A DNA stretch of 56,720 bases from Nanobdellota archaeon (GTDB lineage Archaea > Nanobdellota > Nanobdellia > Woesearchaeales > GW2011-AR9), in NCBI GenBank assembly GCA_030647325.1, contig JAUSJN010000070.1, positions 1 to 56,720 on the forward strand, in the 5' to 3' direction. The notes beneath the pieces are model-generated. The model was not told the DNA's origin. It made no database searches and saw only the letters and a list, made by a program, of their open reading frames with translations. Shown piece after piece: positions 614 through 43,928 of this stretch. The translations under genes were made by a program, and so were the position numbers. Within the stretch, counting starts at the first letter, position 1. Each line of letters opens with the position of its first letter.

Positions 614-661
614 TTGTATAATAATGGTATATTAATATATAAATATTACATTAAATAGACC

Positions 662-799: not shown

Positions 800-861
800 T
801 TATGCTTTGAGAAGGAAGTGGAAGTCCGGCTTGAGCCTGGTATCCAGGGTCTTGCAAAAGA

Positions 862-4641: not shown

Positions 4642-4929
4642 TTAATCTTCTCTCTGCAAATCTTCAAATTGCCGTTCGTAAAAATTTGCATTATTCTTAT
4701 TAATTCCAACATAATATTTATTTAATTTTCTAAATTCTGCTTCTCCTAAGCCCAGCGAAGCAAAGTCTAATAGTCGGTCCAATACTTGTTCAATAGCTGC
4801 AGTTGAAGTTATATTGTTATTGATAATCTCGTCAATTGATTCTCTGACCGAAGGCATGATCTCTTCAATTTGCCTGTTAAGGTCACCAATCCTCTCAAAT
4901 ATGCTCTCATAATCAGTTCTGGCAGGCAT
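4642..4929 (-). CDS. hypothetical helical protein (95 aa)
   Basis: ORF convergent with aIF2-gamma. No recognisable motif. Confidence 0.45.
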   Translation of the reverse strand: MPARTDYESIFERIGDLNRQIEEIMPSVRESIDEIINNNITSTAAIEQVLDRLLDFASLGLGEAEFRKLNKYYVGINKNNANFYERQFEDLQRED

Positions 4930-6325: not shown

Positions 6326-7261
6326 GTGATACTTATGATACGAAAAGCCCTTAAAGAATGTCCTGAATGTGCAAGCCGTAATATATTCAGGAACGTCGAA
6401 AAAGGCGAAACTATCTGCCGGGATTGCGGTCTGGTCATTGAAGATCGCATGGTAGATTTCTCTCAGGAATGGCGTAGTTTTGAAGATGATGGTGGCCAGG
6501 ACAGCAAACGAAGAACTGGAGCTCCTTCCAGCGCTACCCAATTCGATCAAGGATTAGGGACCGAAGTCGGTACTACCGCAGATTTCTATAAATTAGGATC
6601 GGATAGAGAAAGAGATAGATTCTTCAGACTGCGAAAATGGAATATCCGTATCAGCACTGCTATTGAACGGAACTTAAAAGTTGCCCTGGCAGAATTAAAG
6701 AGAGTAAGTTCATATTTACGATTGCCTAAATCTGTGGAAGAGGAAGCTGCCCGCATCTATAGATCAGCGGTGCAGAAGGGATTAGTACGAGGAAGATCCA
6801 TGGAATCAGTCGTAGCTGGCGCATTGTACGCAGCCTGCCGAAGACATGAGATTCCACGTACACTCGATGAGATGGGCGAAGCTTCCGGCATTGAGAAGAA
6901 AGAGATTGGAAGAACCTATCGTTTTGTTACCCGCGAACTGGAAATCAGCATCCGGCCCAGTAATCCAGCTGATTACATCCCTCGTTTTGCCTCTGCTTTG
7001 AAATTAAGCCCGGAAACACAGTCAAAAGCAGTTGAGATCCTTGAACAAGCAAGAGATATCGAATTGACTTCCGGACGAGGACCAACTGGAATTGCTGCTG
7101 CTGCATTGTATGTCGCTTCTTTGATCCACGGCGAAAAGAGAACGCAGCGAGAAGTTGCTGACGTCGCTGGAGTTACGGAAGTTACTATCAGGAATAGATA
7201 CAAAGAATTGATCAAGAAGCTGAAGTTAAGCAAAGACGTCGAGAAGACCAAGAAGAAGTAA
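6326..7261 (+). CDS. tfb: transcription initiation factor IIB (TFB)
   Basis: N-terminal Zn ribbon CPECAS...CRDCG and two cyclin-like repeats. The track start is GTG 6326; ATG at 6335 is an equally plausible start. TATA box at 6279-6288. Confidence 0.95.
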   Translation: MILMIRKALKECPECASRNIFRNVEKGETICRDCGLVIEDRMVDFSQEWRSFEDDGGQDSKRRTGAPSSATQFDQGLGTEVGTTADFYKLGSDRERDRFFRLRKWNIRISTAIERNLKVALAELKRVSSYLRLPKSVEEEAARIYRSAVQKGLVRGRSMESVVAGALYAACRRHEIPRTLDEMGEASGIEKKEIGRTYRFVTRELEISIRPSNPADYIPRFASALKLSPETQSKAVEILEQARDIELTSGRGPTGIAAAALYVASLIHGEKRTQREVADVAGVTEVTIRNRYKELIKKLKLSKDVEKTKKK

Positions 7262-7302
7262 TTATTTTTCTTATAAGTTGGTTTTAGGTGTTGGTATGAG
7301 AG

Positions 7303-8253
7303 ATGGAAAAATACGACCCAGAATTTGCACGAAAAATAGTGGAGCATTATCCTGCTGGTACTCAAGTAGAGAAAGCTCTTTATCTTGCTCAAATGTTTGG
7401 AAAGAGGACAGAGTTTGAAGCTGCTTTAAAGGATCATGGTAGAGGTGTAGGTTTTCGTCGCAATGGGAAAAGTTTGATTGATCTTCTTAATGATGTTTGT
7501 GTACAGAAAGCTGAGTTAGTAAAGCATGACAGAACTCCTCGCGTTTATTCTGTTAATAATAATTTTCTTGCTGTTGAGAATATTCAATGCGTTGATGATG
7601 ATGGGAAGGTATTTGAACAATATAACCATCTGGCTTTTAGTAAAGATATTTTTCGGAAGGGAGGAAAAATAATTAATTTTACTCCTTATAATGCGGCAGT
7701 TCATTGCGAGAAAAATGAATTATTTTTACCGAGTTTTGCCTTGACTTGTAATATTGTTGTTGCTTTGTCTCAAAATAGGGATAATGCTGATGCAAATGCA
7801 CTCTTACAACAATATAAAAACCAAGGCGGCGGTCACGGTTATCATGCACAAAATACAATTATCAATTATGCTATGGAAGAAATAATTCATTATCCTACTG
7901 CGGCAGATTTCAACCAAACGGTAGTAGTTAATGCCGGTCTAAGAAAAATGGGAAAATGTACCAAAGCATCCCTGCAGGATGATCTTTTGGAAAGAGCACT
8001 TAAAGATACTGCTCACACTCTTTATGTAAAACAATTGACCGGTCTTGCTAATCCGTTTGATCTTGTTGAAGTAGGAAAATACCTCGATAAGCCAGTAAGA
8101 TTATGGTTCCCTTGGGGCGGTCAAGGCGGCACTGCTTTTAATGAGAAATGGGCGGCGTGGCTTGGTTGTGTTGGTGATTACTTTTACCTTAGTGGTGATG
8201 GCATTCTTAGTAACTATGGCGCCGCTCGTGGGGTAAAATTAGTCGCACCGTAG
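7303..8253 (+). CDS. hypothetical protein (316 aa)
   Basis: Long ORF with no competing frame. No motif recognised. Confidence 0.6.
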   Translation: MEKYDPEFARKIVEHYPAGTQVEKALYLAQMFGKRTEFEAALKDHGRGVGFRRNGKSLIDLLNDVCVQKAELVKHDRTPRVYSVNNNFLAVENIQCVDDDGKVFEQYNHLAFSKDIFRKGGKIINFTPYNAAVHCEKNELFLPSFALTCNIVVALSQNRDNADANALLQQYKNQGGGHGYHAQNTIINYAMEEIIHYPTAADFNQTVVVNAGLRKMGKCTKASLQDDLLERALKDTAHTLYVKQLTGLANPFDLVEVGKYLDKPVRLWFPWGGQGGTAFNEKWAAWLGCVGDYFYLSGDGILSNYGAARGVKLVAP

Positions 8254-8276
8254 GCGAACAAAAAAGGTCTACAAAC

Positions 8277-9002
8277 ATGAAATCAACCGCACCAGGAACT
8301 TTAAAATCTATCGGAGAAATAAAAACTGCACTCGTTGATGATCATCACGAGGCATTCTATTGGTGGTGGAATTCTGAATTAGAAAGTGCAACCTTATTCC
8401 ATGTTGATGGCCATGATGATATGTCAGAAGCCATTGTTGATCGTCAAATAAAAGGAGCAGAAGATTATAAATCACTGAATATCGCAAATTTTATCTGTCC
8501 GGCTGTACATCATGGTATTATTTCTCACATCTATTGGCTGAATCCTCATTCCAAGGAAAGGACATTACTAGATTATGGAACACCAAAGACTTTTTTCTCC
8601 AAAAGAGATGTCATCCTCAATGAACAGAATTATAAATATGGCTGGGATTATCATGACGGAGATATGATCCGCAAGGGAAATGTTAAGATAATGCCACTGG
8701 ATGGATTTTCTATTCGTAAATCTATTCCTAAAAAAAGGCCATTGATCTTAGACATTGATTTAGATGCCTTTTGCTGCCACAGGAATAGTACTCTTGGAAA
8801 AAGTAAAGATTATAAAGGTGCGCTAGGTTTTGAAGAACGGATCAATCAAACTATGAACGTACTTGCTCAATTGCCAAAACCTGATTTAATCACTATCGCC
8901 AGCTCTCAGGGAGATGGAAAGTATAGATGTTATGTCCCCCCTTTTATGGTAGGTGATGTCAGCCGTTATCTTGCGCTTAATCTACGAACACTTTATGAAT
9001 AA
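8277..9002 (+). CDS. UPF0489-like protein (arginase/deacetylase-like fold, function unknown)
   Basis: DDHHEAFYWWW and HVDGHDDM near the N-terminus, and ILDIDLDAF, resemble the UPF0489 family signature. Confidence 0.55.
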   Translation: MKSTAPGTLKSIGEIKTALVDDHHEAFYWWWNSELESATLFHVDGHDDMSEAIVDRQIKGAEDYKSLNIANFICPAVHHGIISHIYWLNPHSKERTLLDYGTPKTFFSKRDVILNEQNYKYGWDYHDGDMIRKGNVKIMPLDGFSIRKSIPKKRPLILDIDLDAFCCHRNSTLGKSKDYKGALGFEERINQTMNVLAQLPKPDLITIASSQGDGKYRCYVPPFMVGDVSRYLALNLRTLYE

Positions 9003-9012
9003 TAAATTAGCC

Positions 9013-9996
9013 CTAAATCTTCTTTTTCAGGTCATCCCGGTCCAGATTTCGTATCACTACGCCGGTCTGTTCGATCACTTTTGCCGCAAACAGTGAACCT
9101 AATCTTCCTGCTTTCTCGAGAGGCCAGCCTTGACAAAGGGCATAGAGAAAACCAGCAGCGTAACAATCTCCCGCTCCGGTCGTGTCGATGACTTTTGCCG
9201 GGAAAGGATCAATTTTAGTTATGATCCCTTTTTCACAGATCAGCGATCCTCTTTTTCCTAATTTTACGACTACTATCTTGTTTTGCTTTCCGATCTCTTT
9301 TGCAGCCTGCTCATCTTCATGACCGGTGAACTCTTTCGCTTCCGCTTCGTTCACAAAAACGATATCGGCAAAATTCAATACTAAATCTTGCAGGAAAGCT
9401 TTGTTCCTTCTGATCACTCCCGGATCCGCTAAATCAATAGAGACTAACGTGTTATTTTTTTTCGCTAAGGCCAGGGCATGTAATACGGTTTCCCGAGTAG
9501 GTCCTTCGATCTGATATCCTTCGATGTGCAGAACCTTTCCCCGTTTAATATCTTCTTCAAGAAGATCTTCTTTTTGTAATGTAATCGCTGCTCCTAAATG
9601 GACAGAGAAAGTACGCTCAGCATCGGGAGTGATGAAAGTGATAGCATTTCCGGTTGCTGATGAATCATGATATATTCTAGGATCAACTCCCTGCTCTTTC
9701 ATCTCTTGTACATAGGTTTCTCCGTGTTTATCCCTGCCGACTCTCCCATAGAGAATTACTTTTCCTCCCAACAAGGCTATGCCGCGGATAGTATTGGCAG
9801 AAGAACCGCCCGGGACTGTTTTGATGCTGCATCGAGAATCGTTTAATTTTTCGAGCAGTTCTTTTGACTTTTTCTCATCAACTAAATGGAACTCTCCTTT
9901 CTTAAGATTCATCTCCAGTAGTTTGTGCTCCTCTATTTCTACCAATAGATCCATGATAGTATTTCCAAGTCCGATCACATCATAATCTTTAACCAT
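9013..9996 (-). CDS. PfkB-family carbohydrate/nucleoside kinase, probably adenosine kinase
   Basis: GG dipeptide region and C-terminal DTTGAGDCYAAGFLY motif. Adjacent to adenosylhomocysteinase. Confidence 0.8.
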   Translation of the reverse strand: MVKDYDVIGLGNTIMDLLVEIEEHKLLEMNLKKGEFHLVDEKKSKELLEKLNDSRCSIKTVPGGSSANTIRGIALLGGKVILYGRVGRDKHGETYVQEMKEQGVDPRIYHDSSATGNAITFITPDAERTFSVHLGAAITLQKEDLLEEDIKRGKVLHIEGYQIEGPTRETVLHALALAKKNNTLVSIDLADPGVIRRNKAFLQDLVLNFADIVFVNEAEAKEFTGHEDEQAAKEIGKQNKIVVVKLGKRGSLICEKGIITKIDPFPAKVIDTTGAGDCYAAGFLYALCQGWPLEKAGRLGSLFAAKVIEQTGVVIRNLDRDDLKKKI

Positions 9997-10030
9997 AACA
10001 AAATCTGTAGATCAATACCTATAGTGATTT

Positions 10031-11476
10031 TCAATACCTATAATGGTTTGGCTTGTATGGCCCACCCTTATTTAGGTTCAGATATGCTGTCTGCTTATCA
10101 GTAAGTTGGTCAATCTCTACCCCGATTTTCGTAAGATGCAGGCGCGCGACCTCTTCATCTAACAACTTAGGTAGGACATATACTCCTACCTCATAGTTCT
10201 TGGTCCATAAATCGATCTGAGCCAGAACTTGGTTGGTGAAAGAGCTGCTCATCACGAAACTAGGATGTCCAGTCGCGCATCCCAAATTGACTAGCCTTCC
10301 TTCAGCTAAAAGATAAATTTCCTTGCCGTCAGGGAATGCATACTTATCATACTGCGGCTTGATCTGTTCTCTTACTGCGCCAGAGTTAGAATTCAACCAA
10401 TTCATATCGATCTCAGTATCAAAATGACCGATGTTACAGACGATGGCTTGGTCTTTCATGGCCAGAAAATGCCTATCCACGATAATGTCGGTATTTCCAG
10501 TGGTAGTGATAAAGAGATCTCCTTCTTTGACCGCGTTATCCATCTTCTTTACTTCATATCCTTCCATCGCTGCCTGAAGAGCATTGATGGGATCTATTTC
10601 CGTGATTATGATTCGACAGCCGTATCCGCGCAAGGATTGTGCACAACCTTTGCCGACATCTCCATAACCAGCGATCACCGCAACTTTTCCTGCTAACATG
10701 ACGTCGGTAGCTCTTTTGATACCATCAACCAAGGATTCGCGGCAACCATAGAGATTATCAAATTTAGATTTGGTCACAGAGTCGTTGACATTGATGGCCG
10801 GGAAGAGTAATTTTCCTTCCTTCATCATCTGGTAAAGGCGATGGACTCCAGTAGTTGTCTCTTCAGAGACTCCTTTCACTTTTTTTGCTACCTGCTGCCA
10901 TCTGTTTTTATTTGCTGCGTATACTTCTTTAAGACAAAGCATCAGTTCGCGGAAATCCTCTCCCTCATTACTATAATTTTTTTCTAGAAGAGCAGGATTC
11001 TTCTCCACTTCCGCCCCTTTGTGGATCATGATGGTGGCATCTCCGCCATCGTCAACAATCAGATCCGGACCTGAACCATCGGGAAAAGTCAATGCCTGCA
11101 AGGTACACTGCCAATATTCTTTCAGATTTTCTCCTTTCCAGGCGAAGACCGGTATTCCTGCGCTTGCGATTGCCGCAGCAGCATGATCCTGGGTCGAGAA
11201 GATGTTACAGGAAGCCCAGCGTACCTTTGCACCAAGAACAGCTAAAGTCTCAATCAATACTGCAGTCTGAATGGTCATATGCAAAGAACCAGAAATCTTG
11301 ACACCGGCAAGTGGTTTTTGTTTTGTATATTTTTCACGAATCGCCATCAATCCAGGCATTTCTTTCTCCGCGACAGAAATCTCTTTCCTACCCCATTCTG
11401 CTAAGGAAATATCCTTTACTTTATAATCGACCTGATTTTGTTTTGTTTTTTCTGTTTGTAAAAGAGTATTGTGCAT
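10031..11476 (-). CDS. ahcY: adenosylhomocysteinase (SAH hydrolase)
   Basis: Full-length match to the family pattern: NAD site [10 protein letters not shown], plus [10 protein letters not shown] and the C-terminal [10 protein letters not shown]. Confidence 0.95.
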
Positions 11477-11533
11477 GAAAATTCCTCCTTTTGTGGTGAT
11501 TTGTTAATTTATTAGTGATTCCACAACGTAACC

Positions 11534-11542
11534 TATATAAAT
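11534..11542 (+). promoter_or_regulatory. TATA box of gatD
   Basis: TATATAAAT, about 27 nt upstream of ATG 11565. Confidence 0.5.
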
Positions 11543-11564
11543 CTTAAGAAATTATTTTCCTATA

Positions 11565-12857
11565 ATGGCTCAAGCGGGAGATAGGGTGAAAATCAACACC
11601 AAGAAAGGCTCAGAAGAAGGCATTTTAATGCCGAGTTCTGATAAAAAAACTATTCTCCTCAAGTTAGACAGTGGTTATAATGCCGGCTTTGATAACAAAG
11701 ATGTTTCCAACATAACTGTTTTAGCCAAAGCGGCGGCAAAAAAGAAAGTCATGGCAAAAATTACCCAGAATCCAGACCTTCCTACTATCGCTATCTTACA
11801 TACGGGAGGAACCATCGCTTCCAAAGTTGATTATCGTACCGGAGCGGTGGCTTCTGAATTCAGCCCGGAAGAATTGCTATCATTATTCCCGGAATTAAAA
11901 AATATCGCTAACCTTGAATCAGAATTGATCTCTCAGATGTGGAGCGATGATCTGCGCTTTGCTCATTTTTCGCTCATCGCTAAAGCCATTGAACGCCAAG
12001 TCAAGAAAGGCGTGAAAGGAATCATCATCGGCATGGGTACAGATAATCTAGCAGTCGCTTCCGCCGCATTATCCTTCATCGTGGAAAAATCGCCGGTGCC
12101 TATCGTTTTCGTAGGTGCGCAGCGTTCCTCTGACCGCGGCAGCAGCGATGCGGGGATGAATCTCATCTGCGCTGCTGAATTCGTGACCAGAACTGATTTC
12201 GGCGGAGTTGCGATCTGTATGCATGAATCATCGAGCGATAAGACCTGTGTTATCTTACCTGGAACAAAAACCTACAAATTACACTCCTCGCGCCGAGATG
12301 CATTTAAGGCGATCAACTCCTCCGCTCTTGCTAGTGTTGATTATAAGACCATGGAAATAAAATATCTTGGGAATAGTTACCAGAAACGGGCAGATACATT
12401 ATCGCTTAAACCAAAGATGGAAGAGAAAATTGGCTTGTTAAAAATTCATATAAATATGTTCCCGGAGCAATTTTCATTTTTCAAAGGATATAAAGGATTG
12501 ATCATCGAGGGAACCGGTCTAGGGCATACTCCTGGGCAAGCACCAAATAAAGAGAGCGCCATTCACAAAGAGATATATCCTGCTCTCAAAAAATTAATTG
12601 ATTCCGGCTGCGTAATTGTGATGACCACGCAATGCCTGTTTGGCGGCGTGAACATGAATATATACGATAAAGGCCGTGATCTGCTGGAATTAGGGGTACT
12701 TTCTGGAAAAGATTTGCTGGCCAATACAGCATTGGTGAAATTGTCATGGCTCTTGGGAAACCATTCCCGTGAAGAGACCAAGGAATTGGTCGGCCAAAAT
12801 CTGCGCGGTGAGATTAATGAGCGTCTGCAATTTGAAGAAGATTTCGTTAAAAAATAA
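11565..12857 (+). CDS. gatD: Glu-tRNA(Gln) amidotransferase subunit D
   Basis: N-terminal GatD-specific domain followed by an asparaginase-type domain (HTGGTIAS, GMGTDNL). Confidence 0.9.
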   Translation: MAQAGDRVKINTKKGSEEGILMPSSDKKTILLKLDSGYNAGFDNKDVSNITVLAKAAAKKKVMAKITQNPDLPTIAILHTGGTIASKVDYRTGAVASEFSPEELLSLFPELKNIANLESELISQMWSDDLRFAHFSLIAKAIERQVKKGVKGIIIGMGTDNLAVASAALSFIVEKSPVPIVFVGAQRSSDRGSSDAGMNLICAAEFVTRTDFGGVAICMHESSSDKTCVILPGTKTYKLHSSRRDAFKAINSSALASVDYKTMEIKYLGNSYQKRADTLSLKPKMEEKIGLLKIHINMFPEQFSFFKGYKGLIIEGTGLGHTPGQAPNKESAIHKEIYPALKKLIDSGCVIVMTTQCLFGGVNMNIYDKGRDLLELGVLSGKDLLANTALVKLSWLLGNHSREETKELVGQNLRGEINERLQFEEDFVKK

Positions 12858-12863
12858 GAGGAG

Positions 12864-13130
12864 ATGTTTATGAAACAGAAAGTGATGATCGGTTTGTTAT
12901 TATCAATATGCGTGCTCTTTATCTCCTGCACGTCGGCAGCTGAACAATGTTCAGTTGATGCCGATTGTGTTCCGGCTCCATGCTGCCATCCCACCGGTGC
13001 AGTGAACAAGGCTGATGCTCCTGATTGCAGCGGCGTCTTATGTACAGCAGTCTGTGAAGGTCCGTTAGACTGCGGCGCAGGAGAGATTAAATGTATGTCT
13101 AATAGATGTACAATCGTGCCTGTACAATGA
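12864..13130 (+). CDS. small secreted/lipoprotein-like Cys-rich protein (88 aa)
   Basis: Signal peptide ending in ISC. 13 Cys in the mature part. Stop overlaps the next start (ATGA). Confidence 0.6.
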   Translation: MFMKQKVMIGLLLSICVLFISCTSAAEQCSVDADCVPAPCCHPTGAVNKADAPDCSGVLCTAVCEGPLDCGAGEIKCMSNRCTIVPVQ

Positions 13131-13828
13131 TTCCTACCACTGTAAAAGAAGTGATCCGTGATTTTGTCTTCGGGATGGAAGACGGCTTAGTCTCTAATCT
13201 GGGCTTAGTGTTAGGAGTCGCCGCCGGGGGCGGAGATGCTTCTGTCATAGTCCTGGCGGGAGCAGCAAGTATGTTCGCGGGCGCTTTTTCCATGTCGGCA
13301 GGAAGTTACCTTTCTTCTAAATCCCAGCGAGAAGTATATGAGCATGAAATAGAATCTACCAAAGAGAGTTTGTTGCAAAATCCGCGTAAATGTTACCAAG
13401 AGATGCGCTCTTCGCTGGTGAAAGAAGGTCTTAACAAACAGGAAGTAGATAATCTCCTTAAGAAATCATCCCGTTATAAGCATCCTGAATTTGTCTGCAA
13501 CTACATGGTGCAGAAGAAAGTAGGGATCTCTAAAGAGAAGCTGGAAGTCCCGCTGACCAATGCTTTCACTATGTTCTTTTCTTTTTTAGTAGGATCGGCT
13601 TTCCCGATACTTCCCTTCCTATTTTCCAAGCTAAATTATTTAGAGTTATGGCCAGCTGCAGTGATATCATCAGCGTTAACTATTGCCGCTCTTTTCGGGG
13701 TAGGTTTGGCAAAAGCGAGTCATACTAAGCTAAACTGGTTTAAATCTGGGATAGAAGTCGTTTTTATAGGTTTAGCTGCAGGCCTGATCGGGTATTTTGT
13801 AGGGTGGTTAGTGGGACATTTAGGATAA
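13127..13828 (+). CDS. VIT1/CCC1-family iron/manganese transporter
   Basis: FGMEDGLVSNLGLVLGVA motif, central cytosolic helical segment, C-terminal TM helices. ATG 13127 (ATGA overlap with the upstream stop) is preferred over the track start 13106. Confidence 0.85.
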   Translation: MIPTTVKEVIRDFVFGMEDGLVSNLGLVLGVAAGGGDASVIVLAGAASMFAGAFSMSAGSYLSSKSQREVYEHEIESTKESLLQNPRKCYQEMRSSLVKEGLNKQEVDNLLKKSSRYKHPEFVCNYMVQKKVGISKEKLEVPLTNAFTMFFSFLVGSAFPILPFLFSKLNYLELWPAAVISSALTIAALFGVGLAKASHTKLNWFKSGIEVVFIGLAAGLIGYFVGWLVGHLG

Positions 13829-13866
13829 AAATATAGTCTTTATATGCAGAAGATTAAATAGTTTTA

Positions 13867-14109
13867 TTGCATTTACTGGCTTCTATGTTAGATGAAGTCG
13901 TTATTGATCAGATTTTCGAGAGGGAAAAGAGACGGAGAAAAGATTCCGGTTGGCAGCCTATCCCCTTGTATGAAGAACTGGAATTGCCTCGCGATGATTC
14001 TCAGGAAGGAGAACAGATAAAAATAGACGTCTGGGAACCGCAAAAGGATACTGTTGTGGATAATAATGTACTTGATTGTTATTCTCCGAATAAATATAAA
14101 GTTTTTTAA
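13867..14109 (+). CDS. hypothetical acidic protein (80 aa), doubtful
   Basis: ORF with a non-ATG track start (ATG at 13885). An antisense ORF of equal length exists. Confidence 0.3.
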   Translation: MHLLASMLDEVVIDQIFEREKRRRKDSGWQPIPLYEELELPRDDSQEGEQIKIDVWEPQKDTVVDNNVLDCYSPNKYKVF

Positions 14110-14131
14110 CCTAAGTTCCTTCTGAGATCGC

Positions 14132-14692
14132 ATGAAAGAACTTTCTTCCTCATTTTTTGCTCGAGATACAGTTACCGTAGCTCAGGAACTCTTGGGAAAG
14201 ATCATCTCTGTGGATGGGATACAGGCCCGCATAGTAGAAACAGAAGCCTATGGAAGAGATTCGGCTTCCCACGCTTACACCAGAACCGAGCGCAGCGCTT
14301 TGATGTACGATACGCACGGCCATGTCTATGTCTATCTGATCTACGGCATGTACTGGTGCCTAAATTTTACTTGCGACAAGAATGAAGCAGGTGCAGTATT
14401 GATCAGAGCGGTGGAACCTCTTACGGGAATAGAAACAATGAAGAAAAAGAGGAAAACAGAGAACATAGCTAATCTTTGTTCCGGACCAGGGAAATTATGC
14501 CTGGCGTTAGGGATTGATAAAAAGTACAACGGATTGAAAATAGGTAAAGAGATTAAAGTGTTTGATGATGGTTTTAAAGTTAGCAAAATTGCAACCAGTT
14601 CTAGAATCGGGATCAAAGATGCTTTGGACTTGCAATGGAGATTCTTTATTGAAGGGAATGGATACATAAGTAAAGTGAAGATTAATAAATAA
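14132..14692 (+). CDS. mpg: DNA-3-methyladenine glycosylase (Mpg/AAG family)
   Basis: FFARDTVTVAQELLGK, ETEAY, DSASHAY and LCLALGI motifs. Confidence 0.85.
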   Translation: MKELSSSFFARDTVTVAQELLGKIISVDGIQARIVETEAYGRDSASHAYTRTERSALMYDTHGHVYVYLIYGMYWCLNFTCDKNEAGAVLIRAVEPLTGIETMKKKRKTENIANLCSGPGKLCLALGIDKKYNGLKIGKEIKVFDDGFKVSKIATSSRIGIKDALDLQWRFFIEGNGYISKVKINK

Positions 14693-14714
14693 TCAGTTGA
14701 TTTTCTACTTCTAT

Positions 14715-14820
14715 GCGGAGGTGGGAGAGCGGTCAAATCCGCCACCTTGAGATGTAGTACAACTACACAAGAAGGGGTGGTCCCTTAGTGGGTACGCGTG
14801 TTCGATTCACGTCCTCCGCA
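14715..14820 (+). tRNA. tRNA-Leu(GAG) with a 22-nt canonical-position intron (14753-14774)
   Basis: Acceptor GCGGAGG/CCTCCGC plus discriminator A. D arm GGA..TCC. Anticodon stem CCACC/GGTGG with loop TTGAGA|intron|G. Long variable arm CCCTTAGTGGG. T arm GCGTG-TTCGATT-CACGT. No encoded CCA. Confidence 0.85.
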
Positions 14821-14839
14821 CTCCTTTATTCCCCCAAAA

Positions 14840-14849
14840 CTATATAAAC
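14840..14849 (+). promoter_or_regulatory. TATA box of the PAC2 gene
   Basis: CTATATAAAC, about 25 nt upstream of ATG 14870. Confidence 0.5.
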
Positions 14850-14869
14850 TCTAAATCATTTTTCTAAGC

Positions 14870-15682
14870 ATGAATGGCCTCTGGGAAGTAACTGCTGAAA
14901 CAAAATCCCTTCCTACCTTAAACAACCCTGTTTTAATAGAAGGGCTTCCCGGTATTGGTAATGTCGGCAAGATAGCAGTTGATTTCCTGGTAGAAGAATT
15001 GAAAGCCAAGAAGCTCTATTCATTTTTCTCCTACAAATTTCCCCATTCAGTCTTTGTGAACGATAAGAATCTGGTGGAGATGCCTAAATTAGAACTATAT
15101 TACAAACAGTTCGGCAAAGGAAGTAAAAAACATGATCTGCTCTTTTTAGTCGGCGACATCCAGCCTATCGATGAAGAGAGCTGCTATGCTTTCTGTGACG
15201 AAGTCTTGAAGATCGCCCAGCAAAATAAATGCAGCCATTTCATAACTACTGGCGGCATAGGCCTGCAGCATGTTCCAGATAAGCCAAAAGTATATTGCAC
15301 CGCAAACAATCAAGCTTTGCTACGGGAATATCTTAAGAAGGGCATGCCCCTGGAAAAAGAGATATTTGGTGTAGTCGGGCCTATTATCGGCGTTTCTGGA
15401 ATCCTTCTGGCTCTGGGGAAGAAAAAGAATCTCAACGGGGTGGCCTTGCTGGCAGAAACTTTCGGCAATCCTTTTTATTTAGGCATCAAAGGAGCTAAAG
15501 AGATCGTGCAGGTCTTAGAAAAGAAATTCAGCTGGAAGGTGAAAATTAAAAAAATCAATAAAGATATCCGAGAAGTCGAGAATCAATTATTGCAGAAAGC
15601 TACCGATTGGATGTCTGAAGAATTTGCCCAGCCGCAAGCCGGCGCGCATGGCAAGAAGAAAGACGTGCATTATATCGGGTAA
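14870..15682 (+). CDS. PAC2-family proteasome assembly chaperone
   Basis: LIEGLPGIGNVGKIAVDFL motif and overall family length. TATA box at 14840-14849. Confidence 0.8.
   Translation: MNGLWEVTAETKSLPTLNNPVLIEGLPGIGNVGKIAVDFLVEELKAKKLYSFFSYKFPHSVFVNDKNLVEMPKLELYYKQFGKGSKKHDLLFLVGDIQPIDEESCYAFCDEVLKIAQQNKCSHFITTGGIGLQHVPDKPKVYCTANNQALLREYLKKGMPLEKEIFGVVGPIIGVSGILLALGKKKNLNGVALLAETFGNPFYLGIKGAKEIVQVLEKKFSWKVKIKKINKDIREVENQLLQKATDWMSEEFAQPQAGAHGKKKDVHYIG
15651..15675 (+). repeat. left copy of a 25-nt perfect direct repeat (inside the PAC2 3' end)
   Basis: GCAAGAAGAAAGACGTGCATTATAT, identical to 16492-16516. Confidence 0.9.
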
Positions 15683-15684
15683 GA

Positions 15685-15903
15685 TTATTCTTTTAACCAG
15701 TTATATCCTTCTTTATTTTTGATATTGTGAATTTGTTGCAGCTTTTCCTTACCGTTTGGTGTTTGTAAGAGCTTATTTCTAAAAGAATCATGTTTTTCAA
15801 AGAGAGCATCAATAAAATCAGTATGAATTTTTTTCCATTTAGTCGGATTTTCTTTTACAAAAAGCGCCCATCGTTCCACTTGTTGCATATGTTCTTCCCT
15901 CAT
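15685..15903 (-). CDS. hypothetical 72-aa helical protein, partner of the nucleotidyltransferase
   Basis: 4-nt overlap with the upstream ORF 15900-16457. Lies inside the repeat-bounded cassette. Confidence 0.5.
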   Translation of the reverse strand: MREEHMQQVERWALFVKENPTKWKKIHTDFIDALFEKHDSFRNKLLQTPNGKEKLQQIHNIKNKEGYNWLKE

Positions 15904-16457
15904 AGCCGGAATCTCTTAATGAGTAATTTCACTGATTGTATCTCCGTCTCATCTACTTGTTCGGCATATACTATCCGTAAATGCCTTGCATCTTCTAAAT
16001 CTTTTGGACTTTTTAATAGTTCCTCTTTAAAGGCGATATTTACATTAACATTACTAAACCAAACATTTAAACCAGTAAGTTCTAATCTTACTCTATTTTT
16101 AAGTTGGTATTCATCTAAAATATCTTTCACAAACTTAACTTCCATCTCTGGAAGCTCTTTATCTTTCCAGGTAAAGCGAACTGAAGTATTATCTTTTAGG
16201 TAAGAATAAACTTCCTCTGCATCAGAAGATTGCATACAAACAAAACTTTTTTTTGTTAGGTCGTTGAAAAGTAGTTTGAATTTATCAAAGTTGAGTCTTT
16301 CAATAATCATATCGATATCTTCTGTTCCCCTGGTTCTTCCGGAAGCTATGGCTAAAAACCCAGAAACAACGATATATTTACAATGTTTCTCAACAATTAC
16401 GCAGAACTCTTCACAGAATTTGTCTAGGATGTTTCGGTCTTTGATTTGACGTTCCAT
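15900..16457 (-). CDS. nucleotidyltransferase-fold protein (minimal NTase/DUF2204-like)
   Basis: GFLAIASGRTRGTEDIDMII fits the G-x-[SG]...D-x-D signature of pol-beta-fold NTases. Own TATA (TTTATAAAAA, minus strand) and AGGAG just upstream. Confidence 0.6.
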   Translation of the reverse strand: MERQIKDRNILDKFCEEFCVIVEKHCKYIVVSGFLAIASGRTRGTEDIDMIIERLNFDKFKLLFNDLTKKSFVCMQSSDAEEVYSYLKDNTSVRFTWKDKELPEMEVKFVKDILDEYQLKNRVRLELTGLNVWFSNVNVNIAFKEELLKSPKDLEDARHLRIVYAEQVDETEIQSVKLLIKRFRL

Positions 16458-16491
16458 ACTCCTTAATTAGGCCAGATTTTTATAAATCTTA

Positions 16492-16516
16492 GCAAGAAGA
16501 AAGACGTGCATTATAT
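16492..16516 (+). repeat. right copy of the 25-nt direct repeat
   Basis: Identical to 15651-15675. Confidence 0.9.
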
Positions 16517-16523
16517 AGGATGA

Positions 16524-17180
16524 TCAATTAATACGATAAAAACCGATCTTTCTCCTTTTCTCTAATATCTCTTCGCCTTTATTTATTCTGTCTAATTTTC
16601 TGTTAAGGGCTTCTAATGTTTCTTTTAATGATTCTGCTGCCTTTTCTAACCTTTTAGATGCTGTTTCTAATTCTTTAAGTCCAGCTTCTAATTTGTGAAC
16701 ATTTTCTTTATAATCTCTTTGAAAATTGCCTTCCTTTCTGGTTGAAAACAGACCATCCCATAAACACAAGCTTCCTAAAGCGTAAACGGCCTCTGGATCT
16801 ATGGCTGGATCTTTATGGGCTGTCGGAGAATAGATCCTTACTCCGGTATTTTCTTTGATGATATAATCTTTGGAAAGATCAGATCTTTTTTCATCAAAGA
16901 GACGGGAAGGCACGATGACTGTATCTTCTGCCAAGCCTCCCTTATCCAGCAATTGATAGACTTTGTCCGCAAGATCGTCACAAGGCACCTCGGAGTAGAA
17001 ATCTCCCCAGTTCTGATGAGGGAAGCTGGGCGCTTGCTCTTGCATCAGAGTATAACTGTCAGCAGTGAGGATATGCAGTCCTGGAAATTCTTTTCCGATA
17101 AATAGTGTGTTATATCGATACAATTCTGGGATATGCTCTTGCGTCATTTTTATGCTCTCTGATCTTGGATTTTTTCTCAA
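16524..17180 (-). CDS. hypothetical protein (218 aa) with C-terminal coiled coil, co-transcribed with orc1/cdc6
   Basis: Start overlaps the cdc6 stop by 4 nt. C-terminal heptad-like KLEAGLKELETASKRLEKAAESLKETLEAL. Confidence 0.6.
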   Translation of the reverse strand: MRKNPRSESIKMTQEHIPELYRYNTLFIGKEFPGLHILTADSYTLMQEQAPSFPHQNWGDFYSEVPCDDLADKVYQLLDKGGLAEDTVIVPSRLFDEKRSDLSKDYIIKENTGVRIYSPTAHKDPAIDPEAVYALGSLCLWDGLFSTRKEGNFQRDYKENVHKLEAGLKELETASKRLEKAAESLKETLEALNRKLDRINKGEEILEKRRKIGFYRIN

Positions 17181-18259
17181 TACTCGGTCAGCTTCTTATC
17201 CGCATCATAATGGACGATGGTAGAATTCCCCTCGCCGGAAACGCTTCTTTCGGTATTGACAAATTTCCCTTCTTTTAATTTGATGATCCTGCGCTGGAAA
17301 CTCTTGTAGCTCATATCTCCGCCTCGTTCGGCATACAAGGCGAATATCTCTCCGATCTTTCTGCCGGTCTGCTCGCGTATTAAATCAAGGATATGTTTCA
17401 TCTCTTCATCCAGCCCTTCCTTGGGCTTGATATGGAAATCATCCACTTTCTTCAGCGCTTCTGCGACATGTGCAGGAGTGATTTTCCGGGAGCTTCGCTC
17501 TTCGGCGAGATTTCCTGCTTCGCGCATCAGATATAATCCCACCCTGACGTCGCTGGTCTCCGCGCATTTTTCCACTAATTCTTTGAACGCCTCTTCGTCC
17601 CAGCAGCTGTCCACAAAGGCATAATCGCGCCGCTGCTGCAAGATACCGGCGATCTCTGCTTCATTATACGGTCGGAAATAGACAAATTCCGGTCCTAGAC
17701 GACTTCTGATACGCTCATCAAGCTCGCCGTAAGTGTCGCGATAATTGGTGATGAGGAGGATGGACTTCCTGTAAATATCTTCCAAGATCGAATACAAAAA
17801 ATCCATGTCTTCTAATTTATCGATCTCATCAAAGATAAAAACCACACTGTTTTTGTTCAATTTTTGTTTTATTAATTCCAGCAGCTCACTGGTCTTTTTG
17901 TTTTGGATGAACTTATATCCTAGATCTTCACAGATTCTGGTGTAGACCTTAAATGTGGTATTCTCCTTCCAGCAATTCACATACATGGAGATCACCTCGC
18001 CGGTCTCTTCTTCCAATTCGCGCAAGACATGTTTGCAGGCGGTTGTTTTTCCGATTCCAGGAGCGCCATACACAAATAAGTTCCTTCCGTTATGCCCTTG
18101 CAGCAATGGCCGGATAGCCGTGGCAAAGCGCATCTGCTCATTTTCCCTAAACTTCAGGATCTTGGGCTGGAAATCGTAATCTAGGATGACCGTATCGCGG
18201 AACACCGTCTCCCCGCTGCGCAACATATCTTTGAATAGCGACATGATTTTAAGAATCAA
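17177..18259 (-). CDS. cdc6: Orc1/Cdc6 replication initiator
   Basis: AAA+ Walker A GAPGIGKT, Walker B VVFIFDEID, C-terminal winged-helix region. Confidence 0.95.
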   Translation of the reverse strand: MILKIMSLFKDMLRSGETVFRDTVILDYDFQPKILKFRENEQMRFATAIRPLLQGHNGRNLFVYGAPGIGKTTACKHVLRELEEETGEVISMYVNCWKENTTFKVYTRICEDLGYKFIQNKKTSELLELIKQKLNKNSVVFIFDEIDKLEDMDFLYSILEDIYRKSILLITNYRDTYGELDERIRSRLGPEFVYFRPYNEAEIAGILQQRRDYAFVDSCWDEEAFKELVEKCAETSDVRVGLYLMREAGNLAEERSSRKITPAHVAEALKKVDDFHIKPKEGLDEEMKHILDLIREQTGRKIGEIFALYAERGGDMSYKSFQRRIIKLKEGKFVNTERSVSGEGNSTIVHYDADKKLTEY

Positions 18260-18292
18260 AAGGTGGTTTATATTGTTTTTGCGTGTAAGGAG

Positions 18293-18545
18293 GTCATAAA
18301 AGTGCGGGAAAGCGTCTCACCTCGCCTTAAAAGGCGAGGCTTGAAAAGAGACGCTTTCTAACCCCCGCACTTTGTGACACAAGAAATACAACAAAGATTG
18401 TATTTCTGTGCAGAAGGACTTTGTCCTTCTTACATAAAAGGGCTGGATACTCCGCACTGAAGTGCGGAGCAAGAAAAGAAACAACGATTTCTTTTCTGCT
18501 CAGAAATGAAGTAGTTTCTTCATTTCTTGAGCTATCCGTCCTTTT
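18293..18545 (+). repeat. hairpin-module locus B upstream of orc1/cdc6: three-tier hairpin, alpha-beta pair (18378-18433), closing stem with hairpin plus a second alpha-beta pair (18469-18531)
   Basis: Arms read directly: GTCATAAAAGTGCGGG/CCCGCACTTTGTGAC; AAAGCGTCTC/GAGACGCTTT; CCTCGCC/GGCGAGG; CAC[A]AGAAATACA/TGTATTTCTGTG; GC[A]AGAAAAGAAA/TTTCTTTTCTGC; CTCAGAAATGAAG/CTTCATTTCT[T]GAG. Confidence 0.8.
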
Positions 18546-18602
18546 AATGTATAAAGATACTACTGCACTTTCATAAAACTTAAAAGCTCTTTTCATAAAA
18601 AT

Positions 18603-19313
18603 ATGGTTATGAAGGTTAAATCAGCAATTTTTGTTACCGCGCTTGTAGCTATGATACTAGTCCTTACTTCCTGCTCCTTCATTACCGGAGGAGCAACAGC
18701 TGGTGATGCCTGCAGCCCTTTAGAAGGCAGCGCTAAAGATAATTGTTATTTTGAATCTCAACAGTGCAGCAAGGTCAAGAATACCCAATTCCGGGATTCC
18801 TGTGTTGCTGAGTTAGCCAAGCAAAAAGATGACATAAAAGTATGTGATCTTATCGTTACCGGTAAGACTATGGGATTCTGCCAGCAGCAGATAGCGGTGC
18901 AGCAGGATAACTTTGAGCTATGTAAGGAGATAGGCGACGAATCATGGCAGGATACTTGTTATCATAAAATAGCTACGGCCAGGAATGACGTCGATAAATG
19001 CTCTTATATCACTGACTTTGATCTGAATCTGAACTGTGTCAAGAAAGTGGCGATAGCGACTCATGATGTTGAATTATGCGATCGGCTAAGCAAGCAGAAC
19101 AAAGCGGAATGTCTTTTTAAGATAGCCACAGAAACTCTTGATTCTGCGGTCTGCGCCGGGTTTACTGATGATAAATTGAATGCCGCTTCCTGTTATCTGA
19201 AGGTCGCTAAATTGAGTGATAATAAGGCAATCTGTAATAAGATCAGCATAAAAGATATCAAGGATACCTGTATCGCTTATTTTAATCAGAAAACAGCGGC
19301 ATTGTCTTCTTAG
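18603..19313 (+). CDS. Cys-rich repeat lipoprotein (236 aa)
   Basis: Lipobox-like LVLTSC, then about 8 repeats of a roughly 25-aa C-x-D-x-C-type unit (...D.C....A......C..I...). Confidence 0.7.
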   Translation: MVMKVKSAIFVTALVAMILVLTSCSFITGGATAGDACSPLEGSAKDNCYFESQQCSKVKNTQFRDSCVAELAKQKDDIKVCDLIVTGKTMGFCQQQIAVQQDNFELCKEIGDESWQDTCYHKIATARNDVDKCSYITDFDLNLNCVKKVAIATHDVELCDRLSKQNKAECLFKIATETLDSAVCAGFTDDKLNAASCYLKVAKLSDNKAICNKISIKDIKDTCIAYFNQKTAALSS

Positions 19314-20139: not shown

Positions 20140-20220
20140 GTTTTAATTACACCCCATGTGTTTGGTATTCTAGGAAAGATGATGATATATAAAGGTTTCT
20201 AAAAATTTTATAAATTTTTG

Positions 20221-20441
20221 AAACGCGGAGAATTCCACCACTCTATAGAGTGGTGGTTTGCAAGCAAACCACTTATCAATGTGTGGAATTCTTGCGTGCT
20301 CAAAATTAGGCTGGGCGGTGCATGAAATGAAACGACGATTTCATTTCAGCACAGAAAATTGATAGTTTTCAATTTTCTTGTGAGCGAAGCAAACATGCCA
20401 TCGGTCTATTGACCGATGGTCCGCCCAGTCCTATTTTGACA
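20221..20441 (+). repeat. hairpin-module locus C: EcoRI-site backbone (AGAATTCCAC/GTGGAATTCT junction plus TCAAAATTAGGCTGG/CCAGTCCTATTTTGA stem) with alpha-beta-gamma hairpins nested in the second stem
   Basis: Complementary arms read directly. Backbone shared with 23159-23334. Confidence 0.8.
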
Positions 20442-20526
20442 CTCTGGAAGAGACAACCCCCATCTAGTCTGCGTGATTGTTATTGCTAACAGAAGAATTA
20501 TAAATACAATAGTTATTTTCTAGTGT

Positions 20527-22715: not shown

Positions 22716-23167
22716 ACATGTTACTAAAAACTATCGCCAGAGATTTCGCTCATCAGCATAAAATTGAACTTAATACCAGAAGAAATAGCTTAATTGGCAG
22801 AAAGGGAAGGTTAGTAGTAGGTTATTTGGAGAACAGTTTGAGACAAAAAGTATTTGTCAATAAATCATTTCCTCCTCTCGATGGCATTTATGAGAGCAGG
22901 ATAATTATCGATGATGATGGACAAAACCCGGTCTTGAAAATGAACATTCTGTACGGTTGTTTGGAAGATTACATCACTCAATTACACAAAGTTAAGACTG
23001 ATCTTTGCAAGGATATACATGGAATATTGATTGATTCTTATCTTGATCTAGAAAAATACCCTCAGCTTCCGGAAAATATCTTGCAAGAGCAATTGCCTAT
23101 CAGTATTCCTGACCATGTGGAGGATCTGCATGAACTACTTTGGAGTTTTTATCCTTACAAACGCTGA
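22712..23167 (+). CDS. hypothetical protein (151 aa)
   Basis: 4-nt overlap with the phosphoesterase gene. Its last codons and stop lie inside repeat element D. Confidence 0.55.
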   Translation: MNMLLKTIARDFAHQHKIELNTRRNSLIGRKGRLVVGYLENSLRQKVFVNKSFPPLDGIYESRIIIDDDGQNPVLKMNILYGCLEDYITQLHKVKTDLCKDIHGILIDSYLDLEKYPQLPENILQEQLPISIPDHVEDLHELLWSFYPYKR

Positions 23168-23334
23168 GAATTCCATCTATTGAATGGTGATTTGCTCCCA
23201 AACCGCTTATTAATTTGTGGAATTCTTGCGCATGAAAATAAACAACGATTTATTTTCAGCGCAGAAATACGATATTTTTCGTATTTCTTGCGTGCTCAAA
23301 ATTAGGCTGGACATTCGCCAGTCCTATTTTGACA
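23159..23334 (+). repeat. hairpin-module locus D: same backbone as C, with the alpha-beta pair (23228-23291) between the two backbone domains
   Basis: TGCTCAAAATTAGGCTGG and CCAGTCCTATTTTGACA are identical to locus C. The first domain is roughly 80 percent identical by eye. Confidence 0.8.
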
Positions 23335-23371
23335 TAAAAATATATTTAAACTGAAGTGCTTTAGAAGCGAT

Positions 23372-23500
23372 ATGCTCACCAACTGCCCGGAATGCCGTAA
23401 ACCATTGCACGAAGGCCAGCATCGGTATGCTGATGGATTGTTTAAGGTACAATATTGCAAGAAGTGCGGCTTTAGGAAGGAAACTCCTTTACAAGAATAA
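23372..23500 (+). CDS. 42-aa zinc-ribbon peptide (CxxC...CxxC), tentative
   Basis: My translation: MLTNCPECRKPLHEGQHRYADGLFKVQYCKKCGFRKETPLQE. Below the ORF-track cutoff. Confidence 0.35.
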   Translation: MLTNCPECRKPLHEGQHRYADGLFKVQYCKKCGFRKETPLQE

Positions 23501-23501
23501 A

Positions 23502-24254: not shown

Positions 24255-24283
24255 TTCTATTCACCTCTTTTTAGAAAATAACC

Positions 24284-24400
24284 TTTTGATAAAACACAAA
24301 AAGTGAAGAATATCACTTTTGTGCACCAACAAAGTAGTTTCTTTGTTGCGTGGGTTTATCAAAACCATTCAAGTGGAACATTCGCTTTGCTCAGTTCCAC
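24284..24400 (+). repeat. hairpin-module locus G: stem TTTTGATAAA/TTTATCAAAA enclosing an alpha-beta pair (24295-24352), followed by hairpin GTGGAAC/GTTCCAC
   Basis: CAC[A]AAAAGTGA-agaata-TCACTTTTGTG and CAC-CAACAAAG-tagttt-CTTTGTTG[C]GTG read directly. Confidence 0.7.
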
Positions 24401-26442: not shown

Positions 26443-26546
26443 TGAGCCTGCAGGGATTCGAACCCCGATATCGATTTTGGACACCTTTATGTTGCCCAAA
26501 TTAACCGGTCCGAAGCCGATTGTGCTATCCGTTACACCACAGGCCC
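26443..26546 (-). tRNA. tRNA-Arg(UCG) with an insertion of about 31 nt after the anticodon arm (variable-loop region)
   Basis: Minus-strand read: GGGCCTG TG GTGT-AACGGATA-GCAC A ATCGG-CTTCGGA-CCGGT, then 36 nt (a normal variable loop is 5 nt), then CGGGG-TTCGAAT-CCCTG CAGGCTC A. Confidence 0.75.
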
Positions 26547-30225: not shown

Positions 30226-30426
30226 CTGACCTCTTTCTGAGAACTAATGTTTTTGGATATTTATAGCTTGTGGTTGAGATTAACCATAAATAATGGAAGA
30301 CATATAAATATTGCATAATCTCTGTCTTCCAAACTTTAGTTGAGGAGAAGTACATCCAAAACGATTGTCCTCAACTAAAAAGTCAAAAATTTTATAAAGA
30401 GACTAGGGGCTTTAAGCATAACTTAT

Positions 30427-43910: not shown

Positions 43911-43928
43911 GTTTTTATTTTTTTAATT

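Follow-up and report, generated by a model that had tools for sequence, protein, structure and literature searches.

The spacer upstream of orc1/cdc6 in a 56,720-nt stretch of DNA from a Nanobdellota archaeon (GenBank contig JAUSJN010000070.1; the whole stretch is called the window below) raises the question of whether its dense array of hairpins marks a chromosomal replication origin or a spacer colonised by repeats. The first-pass annotation of the sequence had put forward both readings. Comparison with related genomes strongly supports the colonised spacer, as the hairpin modules are absent from the same spacer in close relatives and the same composite occurs in unrelated gene contexts elsewhere; an origin built on CCGCACT repeats resembling origin recognition boxes (ORBs) is not supported. 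The spacer probably consists of two conserved divergent promoters and a palindromic mobile element that has been invaded by double-hairpin elements (DHEs), with no conserved role in replication initiation.

Layout of the spacer and its counterparts in relatives

The spacer extends from the cdc6 ATG at 18244 on the minus strand to the ATG of the divergent neighbour at 18603 or 18609; the cdc6 start had been placed at 18259, where an upstream TTG merely opens the listed open reading frame (ORF). The five parts into which the spacer had been divided were all found at the reported coordinates. The three-tier hairpin at 18293–18379, with the stems AAAGTGCGGG/CCCGCACTTT, GAAAGCGTCTC/GAGACGCTTTC and CCTCGCCTT/AAGGCGAGG, has the layout of 712–799 on the opposite strand; the alpha-beta pair described near 18378–18433 is a hairpin pair located at 18382–18430; the closing stem (18436–18449/18533–18545) holds CTCCGCAC-TGAA-GTGCGGAG (18450–18469) and a second pair of 10-bp hairpins (18472–18527); and the AT-rich tail is present. 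CCGCACT was confirmed at 18301–18307 (minus), 18365–18371 (plus), 18452–18458 (plus) and 18461–18467 (minus); these are four of the six copies in the entire window, and all are arms of two hairpin stems.

The structure of the spacer is far beyond chance. Folded as RNA, it has a minimum free energy of −139 kcal/mol, compared with −75 ± 4.8 kcal/mol for shuffled sequences (z = −13.4); the minus strand gives z = −12.4, and 18284–18555 folded with DNA parameters gives z = −14.4. When 150-nt windows were scanned across the entire 56.7 kb, together with a hairpin scan, strong excess structure was confined to the cdc6 spacer and six other loci, at about 650–850, 20150–20450, 23150–23350, 24260–24370 (from the hairpin scan), 43900–44200 and 45700–46000. 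Weak excess structure was also seen at 30251–30400 and 41751–41900, each of which holds several unrelated intergenic hairpins left unassigned to the module families. An ATG-initiated ORF of 89 aa (18327–18596, minus strand) overlies the hairpin cluster and carries a risk of mis-annotation; as a gene it was rejected, being a by-product of the palindromes.

In species-representative genomes, 27 cdc6 loci were found (loci and contigs are designated by L numbers), six of which are syntenic across cdc6 and its neighbour, with Cdc6 84–92% identical (92% in L002 and L004, 84% in L007) and DNA about 75–85% identical to the window. In L002, L004 and L007 the spacer is about 100 nt long and comprises two promoter cores with at most about 10 nt between them, while the content between the promoters is about 40 nt in L006, about 60 nt in L003, about 210 nt of different structured DNA in L008 and 272 nt in the window. 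Because the spacers of the syntenic relatives are empty or different, 18284–18555 is a lineage-specific insertion. Among the relatives with 66–75% Cdc6 identity, the complete upstream intergenic region is only 29–90 nt long in nine of 17 loci.

Two blocks conserved in all seven genomes (GGTTTATATTGTTTTTGCG beside cdc6 and ..CTACTATAnTTCCATAAAACTTAAAAG.. beside the neighbour) each lie about 25 nt from the respective start codon, and on account of this distance they are read as the putative promoters of leaderless mRNAs, with a transcription factor B recognition element (BRE) and TATA box. A similar AATATAAA/TTAATATAA box stands ahead of cdc6 in the distant relatives, and the longest invariant stretch of the seven-genome spacer alignment falls within 18556–18602. 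The features of the spacer are as follows.

18265–18283, minus strand: conserved putative cdc6 promoter core GGTTTATATTGTTTTTGCG (minus strand CGCAAAAACAATATAAACC, about 25 nt upstream of the ATG; leaderless type), kept in all syntenic relatives.
18284–18555, no strand: lineage-specific 272-nt insertion (composite plus two nested DHEs), absent from L002, L004 and L007; other material in L003, L006 and L008.
18293–18379, plus strand: three-tier hairpin, first half of the backbone; window copies at 710–799 (minus) and 44060–44182 (minus), and copies in seven contigs.
18380–18432, no strand: DHE-1, CA-AGAAATACAA/loop CAAAGA/TTGTATTTCT-GTGC-AGAAGGAC/TTT/GTCCTTCT-TA; CA repeats at 18378–18379 and 18433–18434.
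18433–18469, plus strand: second half of the backbone, with the 5′ arm of the closing stem AAAAGGGCTGGATA (18436–18449) and the hairpin CTCCGCAC-TGAA-GTGCGGAG (18450–18469); collinear with L073, L099 and L127.
18470–18529, no strand: DHE-2, CA-AGAAAAGAAA/CAACGA/TTTCTTTTCT-GCTC-AGAAATGAAG/TAGTTT/CTTCATTTCT-TG; AG repeats at 18468–18469 and 18530–18531.
18530–18555, plus strand: 3′ end of the backbone, with the 3′ arm of the closing stem TATCCGTCCTTTT (18533–18545) and the conserved terminus TTAATGTATA; kept in L073, L099, L127, L140 and window copy A.
18556–18602, plus strand: conserved putative promoter region of the divergent neighbour (..CTACTnnAnTTnCATAAAACTTAAAAG..), the AT-rich tail of the first-pass annotation; seven-genome spacer alignment.

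The material found between the promoters of the other relatives varies. The insert of L006 (about 2700–2745) is a small GTCAT..ATGAC hairpin that resembles the ends of the window composite, that of L008 (about 1380–1590) spans 210 nt and contains a long closing stem of its own as well as a hairpin with the loop AAACGA, and that of L003 (about 1065–1130) lies at the same promoter-to-promoter site. Either the site is a landing place that has been used repeatedly, or an old insert there has decayed along a different path in each lineage. The sister genomes L010 (about 4700–4860) and L009 (about 9860–9900) differ by the presence or absence of a long-stem hairpin of about 120 nt, AATAGGTC...GACCTATT, which adjoins the neighbour-gene end of the cdc6 spacer and is a different hairpin element from the composite and the DHEs.

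Composite backbone, double-hairpin elements and the insertion rule

A search of the loci with CTCACC ... GGYTTGAA, the unpaired segments that are conserved in the three-tier hairpin, turned up copies in seven further contigs (L049, L067, L073, L099, L122, L127 and L138), with two more in the window. In an alignment of eight copies, in two of which a nested element was cut out by hand, 11 of the 33 base pairs carry compensatory double changes, and the internal loops are conserved. L073/L127 and L099 contain an uninterrupted composite of about 150 nt, GTCATGAAAGTGCGGG..CTCACC..GGCTTGAAAAGAG..CCCCGCACTTTGTGACATAAAAGGGCTGGATACTCCGnACTnAAGTnCGGAGCTATCCGTCCTTTTAATGTATA, in gene contexts unrelated to cdc6, and L138 has the same three-tier half, again in an unrelated gene context. 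This backbone of about 150 nt consists of the three-tier hairpin and a second hairpin with a closing stem, and terminates in ..TTTTAATGTATA. The window is collinear with the composite over 18293–18553 save for two clean extra blocks, 18380–18432 and 18470–18529.

Both blocks are DHEs, elements of the form CA-[10-bp hairpin, loop MAACKA or its complement]-G N′N′ C-[10-bp hairpin]-TG. DHE-1 corresponds to a clean gap in the uninterrupted backbones of L073 and L099, which read GTGACATAAAAGG at this position, and its centre TG is complementary to the duplicated CA; DHE-2 corresponds to a second clean gap in the same two backbones (there CGGAGCTATCC), and the duplicated AG is matched by a complementary centre, CT. 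In L140, DHE-2 recurs together with the composite's right end, with 99% identity over 96 nt, in a different gene context.

A loose pattern for the DHE (GAAA N14–18 TTTC W G NN C AGAAA N14–18 TTTCTTG), in which the inner stems, loops and flanks are unconstrained, matched three elements in the window, with none expected from window shuffles. In metagenomes it matched at least 120 contigs, of which many derive from groundwater; there was no match in 2.9 million viral contigs. These metagenome contigs are Woesearchaeota-like: at 28 of the 120 loci, proteins are homologous to a small Woesearchaeota reference set at 31–90% identity (19 loci at 50% or more). The density of DHEs is six to seven per 56.7 kb in the window versus three in 367 kb of the relatives' loci, a difference of about tenfold that indicates a lineage-specific expansion. 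DHEs are intergenic, with 12 of 132 falling within long open frames versus 73% of random positions.

The stems of these elements covary. In about 76% of DHE hairpins all five unconstrained inner pairs are Watson–Crick, compared with about 0.2% by chance, and the hairpins comprise 64 stem variants with a single loop motif, MAACKA, in either orientation. The flanks C-A ... T-G are invariant and the stem base AGAAA/TTTCT is conserved. In an alignment of 61 non-redundant elements, 96–97% of the stem cells are standard pairs versus 76% after shuffling, compensatory double changes occupy 311 cells versus 93 ± 12 (a count reached in none of 500 shuffles), and G·U pairs make up about 0.7% of stem cells. 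One hairpin subfamily (for example in L079, L089 and L113: AGAAATGAGA..TCGCATTTCT) has a recurrent A·G or C·T at stem position 8; since 17 of the 29 stem mismatches fall at this position, the mismatch is not random mutation. Purine enrichment of the 5′ arms on one strand was considered and discarded, as a perfect hairpin is identical on both strands and its orientation is set by the loops alone; wobble-type mismatches were split 12 versus 3 between the strands with respect to loop orientation, numbers too small for a conclusion.

The position of insertion follows the rule NN-[C A-hairpin1-G N′N′ C-hairpin2-T G]-NN, in which the architecture is two-fold symmetric and NN is complementary to the central N′N′. 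Both flanking dinucleotides and the complement of the centre agree in 51 of 56 DHEs, compared with about 17 when the centres are shuffled (maximum 29 in 1000 shuffles), and each flank pairs with the centre in 60–61 of the 61 aligned DHEs, with three types of pair. One position further out, pairing drops to about half of the 61, from which it follows that the duplicated and covarying unit is exactly a dinucleotide; a 4-nt target duplication was rejected because only about half of the elements agree at the outermost positions. The same rule is seen in 12 independent filled/empty pairs among the loci and in the window's own cases, namely DHE-1, DHE-2 and 23231–23290 (compared with the uninterrupted linker at 20292): NN is present once in the empty site and twice in the filled site, and the centre is always complementary. 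Two different DHEs occupy the same backbone linker, TTGCGTGCTC, two bases apart, one after CG with the centre GCGC and the other after TG with the centre GCAC.

The targets are often the hairpin loops of other DHEs, the central linker of another DHE or the inter-hairpin junctions of composites, all of which are unpaired when the DNA is folded. In L122 (1887–2250), the GAAC linker at the centre of one DHE contains a second DHE, and a stem of a three-tier hairpin contains a DHE variant; L067 (1629–1795) holds a DHE in the three-tier apical loop. Identical stem pairs are associated with different centres in eight of 24 groups, which fits models in which the centre is a heritable guide and models in which it is written at insertion alike. 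The other repeat loci of the window contain related arrangements.

640–800, minus strand: second full composite (subfamily A: three-tier hairpin and second hairpin, without nested DHE), collinear with L049.
20228–20440, plus strand: related composite, type C, with a GAATTCCA..TGGAATTC hairpin and the closing stem AAAATTAGGCTGG../..CCAGTCCTATTTT, and a DHE (20321–20380) in the loop.
23168–23345, plus strand: second type C composite, with a DHE (23231–23290) at a different point (TTGCG^TGCTC); the empty site is window 20292.
43930–44182, no strand: closing stem with a DHE-like pair (43972–44023), then a three-tier hairpin (44060–44182, minus strand) with an insertion in the apical stem.
45762–45955, plus strand: DHE (45767–45815) and GC-rich long hairpin (45822–45955) in a common closing stem; absent from the syntenic L109 spacer.

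In L002, the spacer that corresponds to 20228–20440 is only about 64 nt long. The long imperfect hairpin at 45822–45955 (about 135 nt, about 60% GC) is enclosed together with the DHE by the closing stem TTCTTTTTGCGCC/GGCGTGCAAGAAG, and the 236-nt fold has z = −8.4. It matches no Rfam family, and the syntenic L109 spacer lacks it; on these grounds it looks like another type of inserted module rather than a conserved RNA gene.

Mobile DNA weighed against origin, RNA and host functions

Archaeal replication origins generally comprise several ORB repeats, typically inverted, around an AT-rich DNA unwinding element (DUE) beside orc1/cdc6 (PMC4010727), and the reading of the hairpin cluster as the chromosomal origin, with the inverted CCGCACT repeats as ORB-like sites and the tail or hairpin extrusion as the unwinding element, draws on this likeness. 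The spacer does lie directly upstream of a genuine orc1/cdc6 gene, its inverted repeats do stand near AT-rich DNA, and ORB sequences vary between lineages (PMC4010727). However, the repeats are unlike ORBs, and neither they nor their architecture are conserved in relatives: the entire 272-nt block is missing in genomes with 84–92% identical Cdc6, and, given the short upstream regions of the more distant relatives, an ORB/DUE origin would not fit immediately upstream of cdc6 in this clade generally. The CCGCACT copies form the arms of hairpins in a dispersed mobile composite that is found far from cdc6, both in the window (710–799) and in other genomes, and the AT-rich tail proposed as an unwinding element coincides with the conserved putative promoter of the neighbour in the seven-genome alignment; no DUE separate from the BRE/TATA region of the neighbour is visible in the spacer. 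No ORB-type site matching TCCANNGGAAA, TTCCANNGGAA or TTACANTTGAAAT with up to one mismatch occurs in 18245–18602, and no cluster of canonical ORB patterns occurs anywhere in the window. GC and AT skew, a weak test at this scale, shows no consistent switch in the window or in the 8-kb flanks of cdc6 at ten loci, where gene orientation dominates the signal. The first-pass annotation had named, as an observation that would refute the origin, relatives with a canonical ORB/DUE origin that lack the modules; the relatives do lack the modules, and a canonical ORB/DUE was not found there. An origin in the hairpin cluster is highly improbable, and hairpin-dense DNA beside orc1/cdc6 in DPANN archaea should not be annotated as oriC on its looks alone, as it is a tempting false positive.

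The conservation of structure raises the alternative that the composite and the DHEs are a structured noncoding or cis-regulatory RNA (a multi-copy small RNA family, terminators or mRNA stabilisers) under selection at the RNA level. Such selection could account for the strong covariation and for the unpaired nucleotides that are kept (the CUUGAAAAG internal loop and the UAAA/UGAA apical loops), as well as for a T·G pair conserved in one orientation at the base of the three-tier hairpin; moreover, the composite carries a TATA-like box at its 3′ end, and some copies lie between convergent genes (23168–23501 and 43911–44177). Against this, the pairs are almost all Watson–Crick, the loop motif in either orientation and the two-fold symmetry are as expected of DNA palindromes, and the pattern of presence, absence and nesting is that of mobile DNA. 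No Rfam family matches: with Rfam 15 the only match in the window at the gathering threshold is a tRNA at 26443–26546, permissive thresholds added nothing relevant, and the best score in the spacer is 26 bits versus a gathering threshold of 52.7. The copy in the cdc6 spacer, like three others, is placed between divergent promoters and ahead of the two transcription starts, which makes an RNA-level role for the cdc6-spacer copy less likely. As G·U pairs are nearly absent and four of the seven repeat loci of the window lie between divergent promoters, where they are expected to be untranscribed, constraint at the DNA level is favoured over constraint at the RNA level, and the RNA explanation as a whole is unlikely.

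A further alternative is that the elements are mobile and have been co-opted by the host as sites bound by a DNA-binding or nucleoid protein, as promoter insulators or as recombination sites. Stems that stay perfect despite sequence divergence, the conservation of the loop motif MAACKA and of the stem base AGAAA/TTTCT, and the repeated occupation of the same promoter-to-promoter site in several lineages would suit such a role, and bacterial repetitive extragenic palindromic (REP) elements have acquired secondary roles of this kind (PMC3733652). Close relatives, however, lack the elements at the same loci, their density differs more than 10-fold between related genomes and no candidate binding protein was identified; this alternative has little probability.

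The preferred explanation, a spacer invaded by mobile DNA, may be described as follows. A non-autonomous palindromic mobile element of about 150 nt would have landed between two leaderless-type promoters, and two DHEs would then have inserted into unpaired junctions of its backbone. Movement would take place at the DNA level while the elements are folded into hairpins, in single-stranded or extruded DNA; the tetranucleotide at the centre would pair with the target and end dinucleotides and thereby position cleavage and joining, in a manner comparable to the pairing of guide and cleavage site in IS200/IS605; and an enzyme encoded elsewhere in the genome would act in trans. Mobility itself is suggested by the presence and absence of elements between related genomes. 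A more specific proposal, less likely than not, is that DHEs are a new class of self-guided mobile DNA in DPANN archaea, in which the central G-N′N′-C pairs with a single-stranded dinucleotide and picks the site, the element being moved in trans by a structure-specific enzyme. If this is true, a single mutation of the centre would re-programme the target of a DHE.

Several points weigh against this explanation. An origin may still lie somewhere near cdc6, and mobility is deduced from comparison between genomes and not from observed movement. No mobilising enzyme was found among the ORFs of the window or those near the elements, and no RAYT/Y1 homologue in about 1.6 Mb. The match between centre and flank could have been written at insertion, templated from the target, or could be kept by selection for an extended-stem structure. 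Perfect covarying stems in diverged copies imply continuing selection on each hairpin, and for this reason a purely selfish-DNA model is incomplete, and a host function (protein binding, nucleoid structure or promoter insulation) may coexist with mobility.

Searches for proteins linked to the DHEs gave negative results. When 708 ORFs within 2.5 kb of DHEs were clustered, the largest family had six members and no family was enriched; Pfam detected no transposase among about 50 ORFs of the window, and no Y1_Tnp; no resident insertion sequence (IS) related to the DHEs was found among the nearby ORFs or those of the window; and a tblastn search with Escherichia coli RayT against the window and 147 loci (about 1.6 Mb, a fraction of any one genome) gave a best E value of 0.39, with no RAYT or Y1 homologue.

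In behaviour and architecture, the DHEs are closest to the bacterial dimers known as REP, bacterial interspersed mosaic elements (BIME) and REPIN, with a further resemblance to mitochondrial double-hairpin elements and GC clusters. REP, BIME and REPIN sequences are short, high-copy, noncoding intergenic palindromes of lineage-specific abundance that are mobilised by RAYT Y1 transposases (PMC3733652, PMC3116915); inverted dimers are common, their partners may differ in stem or loop (`heterodimers') and they sometimes lie 1–2 bp apart or inside other palindromes (PMC3733652, PMC3116915). The DHEs likewise have 26-nt hairpins (REP palindromes being 20–40 nt long) in inverted pairs, in many intergenic copies. 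In contrast to REPs, they lack the GTAG/CGTC tag and have CA...TG termini, their host is archaeal (DPANN), their stems are perfect rather than imperfect, and no RAYT homologue accompanies them in the roughly 1.6 Mb searched. To our knowledge, a centre complementary to the duplicated target dinucleotide is not a described feature of REPs.

In the IS200/IS605 family (IS608 and ISDra2), cleavage and target sites are reportedly chosen by pairing with a short guide beside the foot of a hairpin. DHEs share with this family their hairpins, a short internal sequence complementary to the flanks or target, and targets that would be single-stranded when hairpins fold, and by this analogy the centre may act as a guide. 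They differ in being 56–60 nt long, two-fold symmetric and noncoding, with a single central `guide' shared by the two ends instead of a separate one for each; they show an apparent 2-nt duplication, whereas IS608 shows none, and no TnpA and no ORF family linked to the elements was found.

The double-hairpin elements of Allomyces mitochondria, yeast GC clusters and the hairpin-forming repeats of sponges are also tiny, noncoding and sporadic (PMC4478555, PMC2800124, where Paquin 2000 is cited). [quoted passage not shown] These elements, however, reside in eukaryotic organelle genomes, share no sequence similarity with DHEs and have no reported complementarity between centre and target. Classical MITEs (transposable elements of the miniature inverted-repeat kind), such as the Sulfolobus SM elements and Correia, resemble DHEs in being non-autonomous, small, intergenic and able to nest, with a short target-site duplication, which in DHEs is 2 nt long and accompanied by CA/TG termini. 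Unlike MITEs, DHEs lack long terminal inverted repeats, no parent IS was found, and copies differ in stem sequence and yet pair perfectly.

No DPANN example is given in a 2024 review of MITEs in prokaryotes (PMC10969869), and an incomplete search of the accessible literature found no description of hairpin repeats or MITEs in DPANN archaea or Woesearchaeota. DHEs therefore seem to be undescribed, widespread nested hairpin repeats of Woesearchaeota/Nanoarchaeota, a kind of `junk' that is unexpected in very small genomes. The rule relating centre and target offers a testable handle on a possibly new mechanism of DNA-guided integration and, together with element load, a route to the responsible enzyme by phylogenetic profiling across metagenome-assembled genomes. 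Hairpin repeats of this kind also break short-read assemblies, as a public contig ends within an element. This contig (L001, Logan contig SRR13727527_248398) is 100% identical to window 7177–18328 and stops 84 nt upstream of the cdc6 ATG, within the three-tier hairpin.

Orc1/Cdc6, its neighbour and other genes of the window

The two genes that flank the spacer are as follows.

17177–18244, minus strand: orc1/cdc6, 355 aa (Pfam AAA_22 and Cdc6_lid; PDB matches; conserved family).
18603–19313, plus strand: divergent neighbour gene, Cys-rich, with a hydrophobic N-terminus; syntenic in L002, L003, L004, L006, L007 and L008.

Judged by its domains and structural matches, the 355-aa protein is a genuine Orc1/Cdc6, the best PDB matches being Aeropyrum ORC1 (2V1U, 8e-25) and a Sulfolobus protein (2QBY). 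It belongs to a tightly conserved 355-aa family, the members of which come from source records labelled Woesearchaeota, Nanoarchaeota or Nanoarchaeia (DPANN archaea), and its gene overlaps the next downstream gene in the window. The protein is short: the match to 2V1U stops at residue 309, and Pfam did not detect the C-terminal winged helix (Cdc6_C) at E ≤ 1e-3, so this DPANN family may have a divergent DNA-binding domain. The neighbour has no Pfam match, and its conserved start is probably the in-frame ATG at 18609.

About 50 further ORFs of the window have housekeeping assignments by Pfam, including eIF2-gamma, TFB, SRP54, ArgRS, SerRS, XPD and ribosomal protein S15. Two paralogues of the endonuclease/exonuclease/phosphatase (EEP) family (4986–5792 and 49413–50219, both plus strand) occur within this one 57-kb stretch of a reduced genome, and nothing ties them to the repeats. 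The tRNA detected by Rfam at 26443–26546 on the minus strand (48.6 bits) is 104 nt long and probably contains an intron; as ARAGORN reports no tRNA anywhere in the window, it may be an archaeal tRNA with a non-canonical intron.

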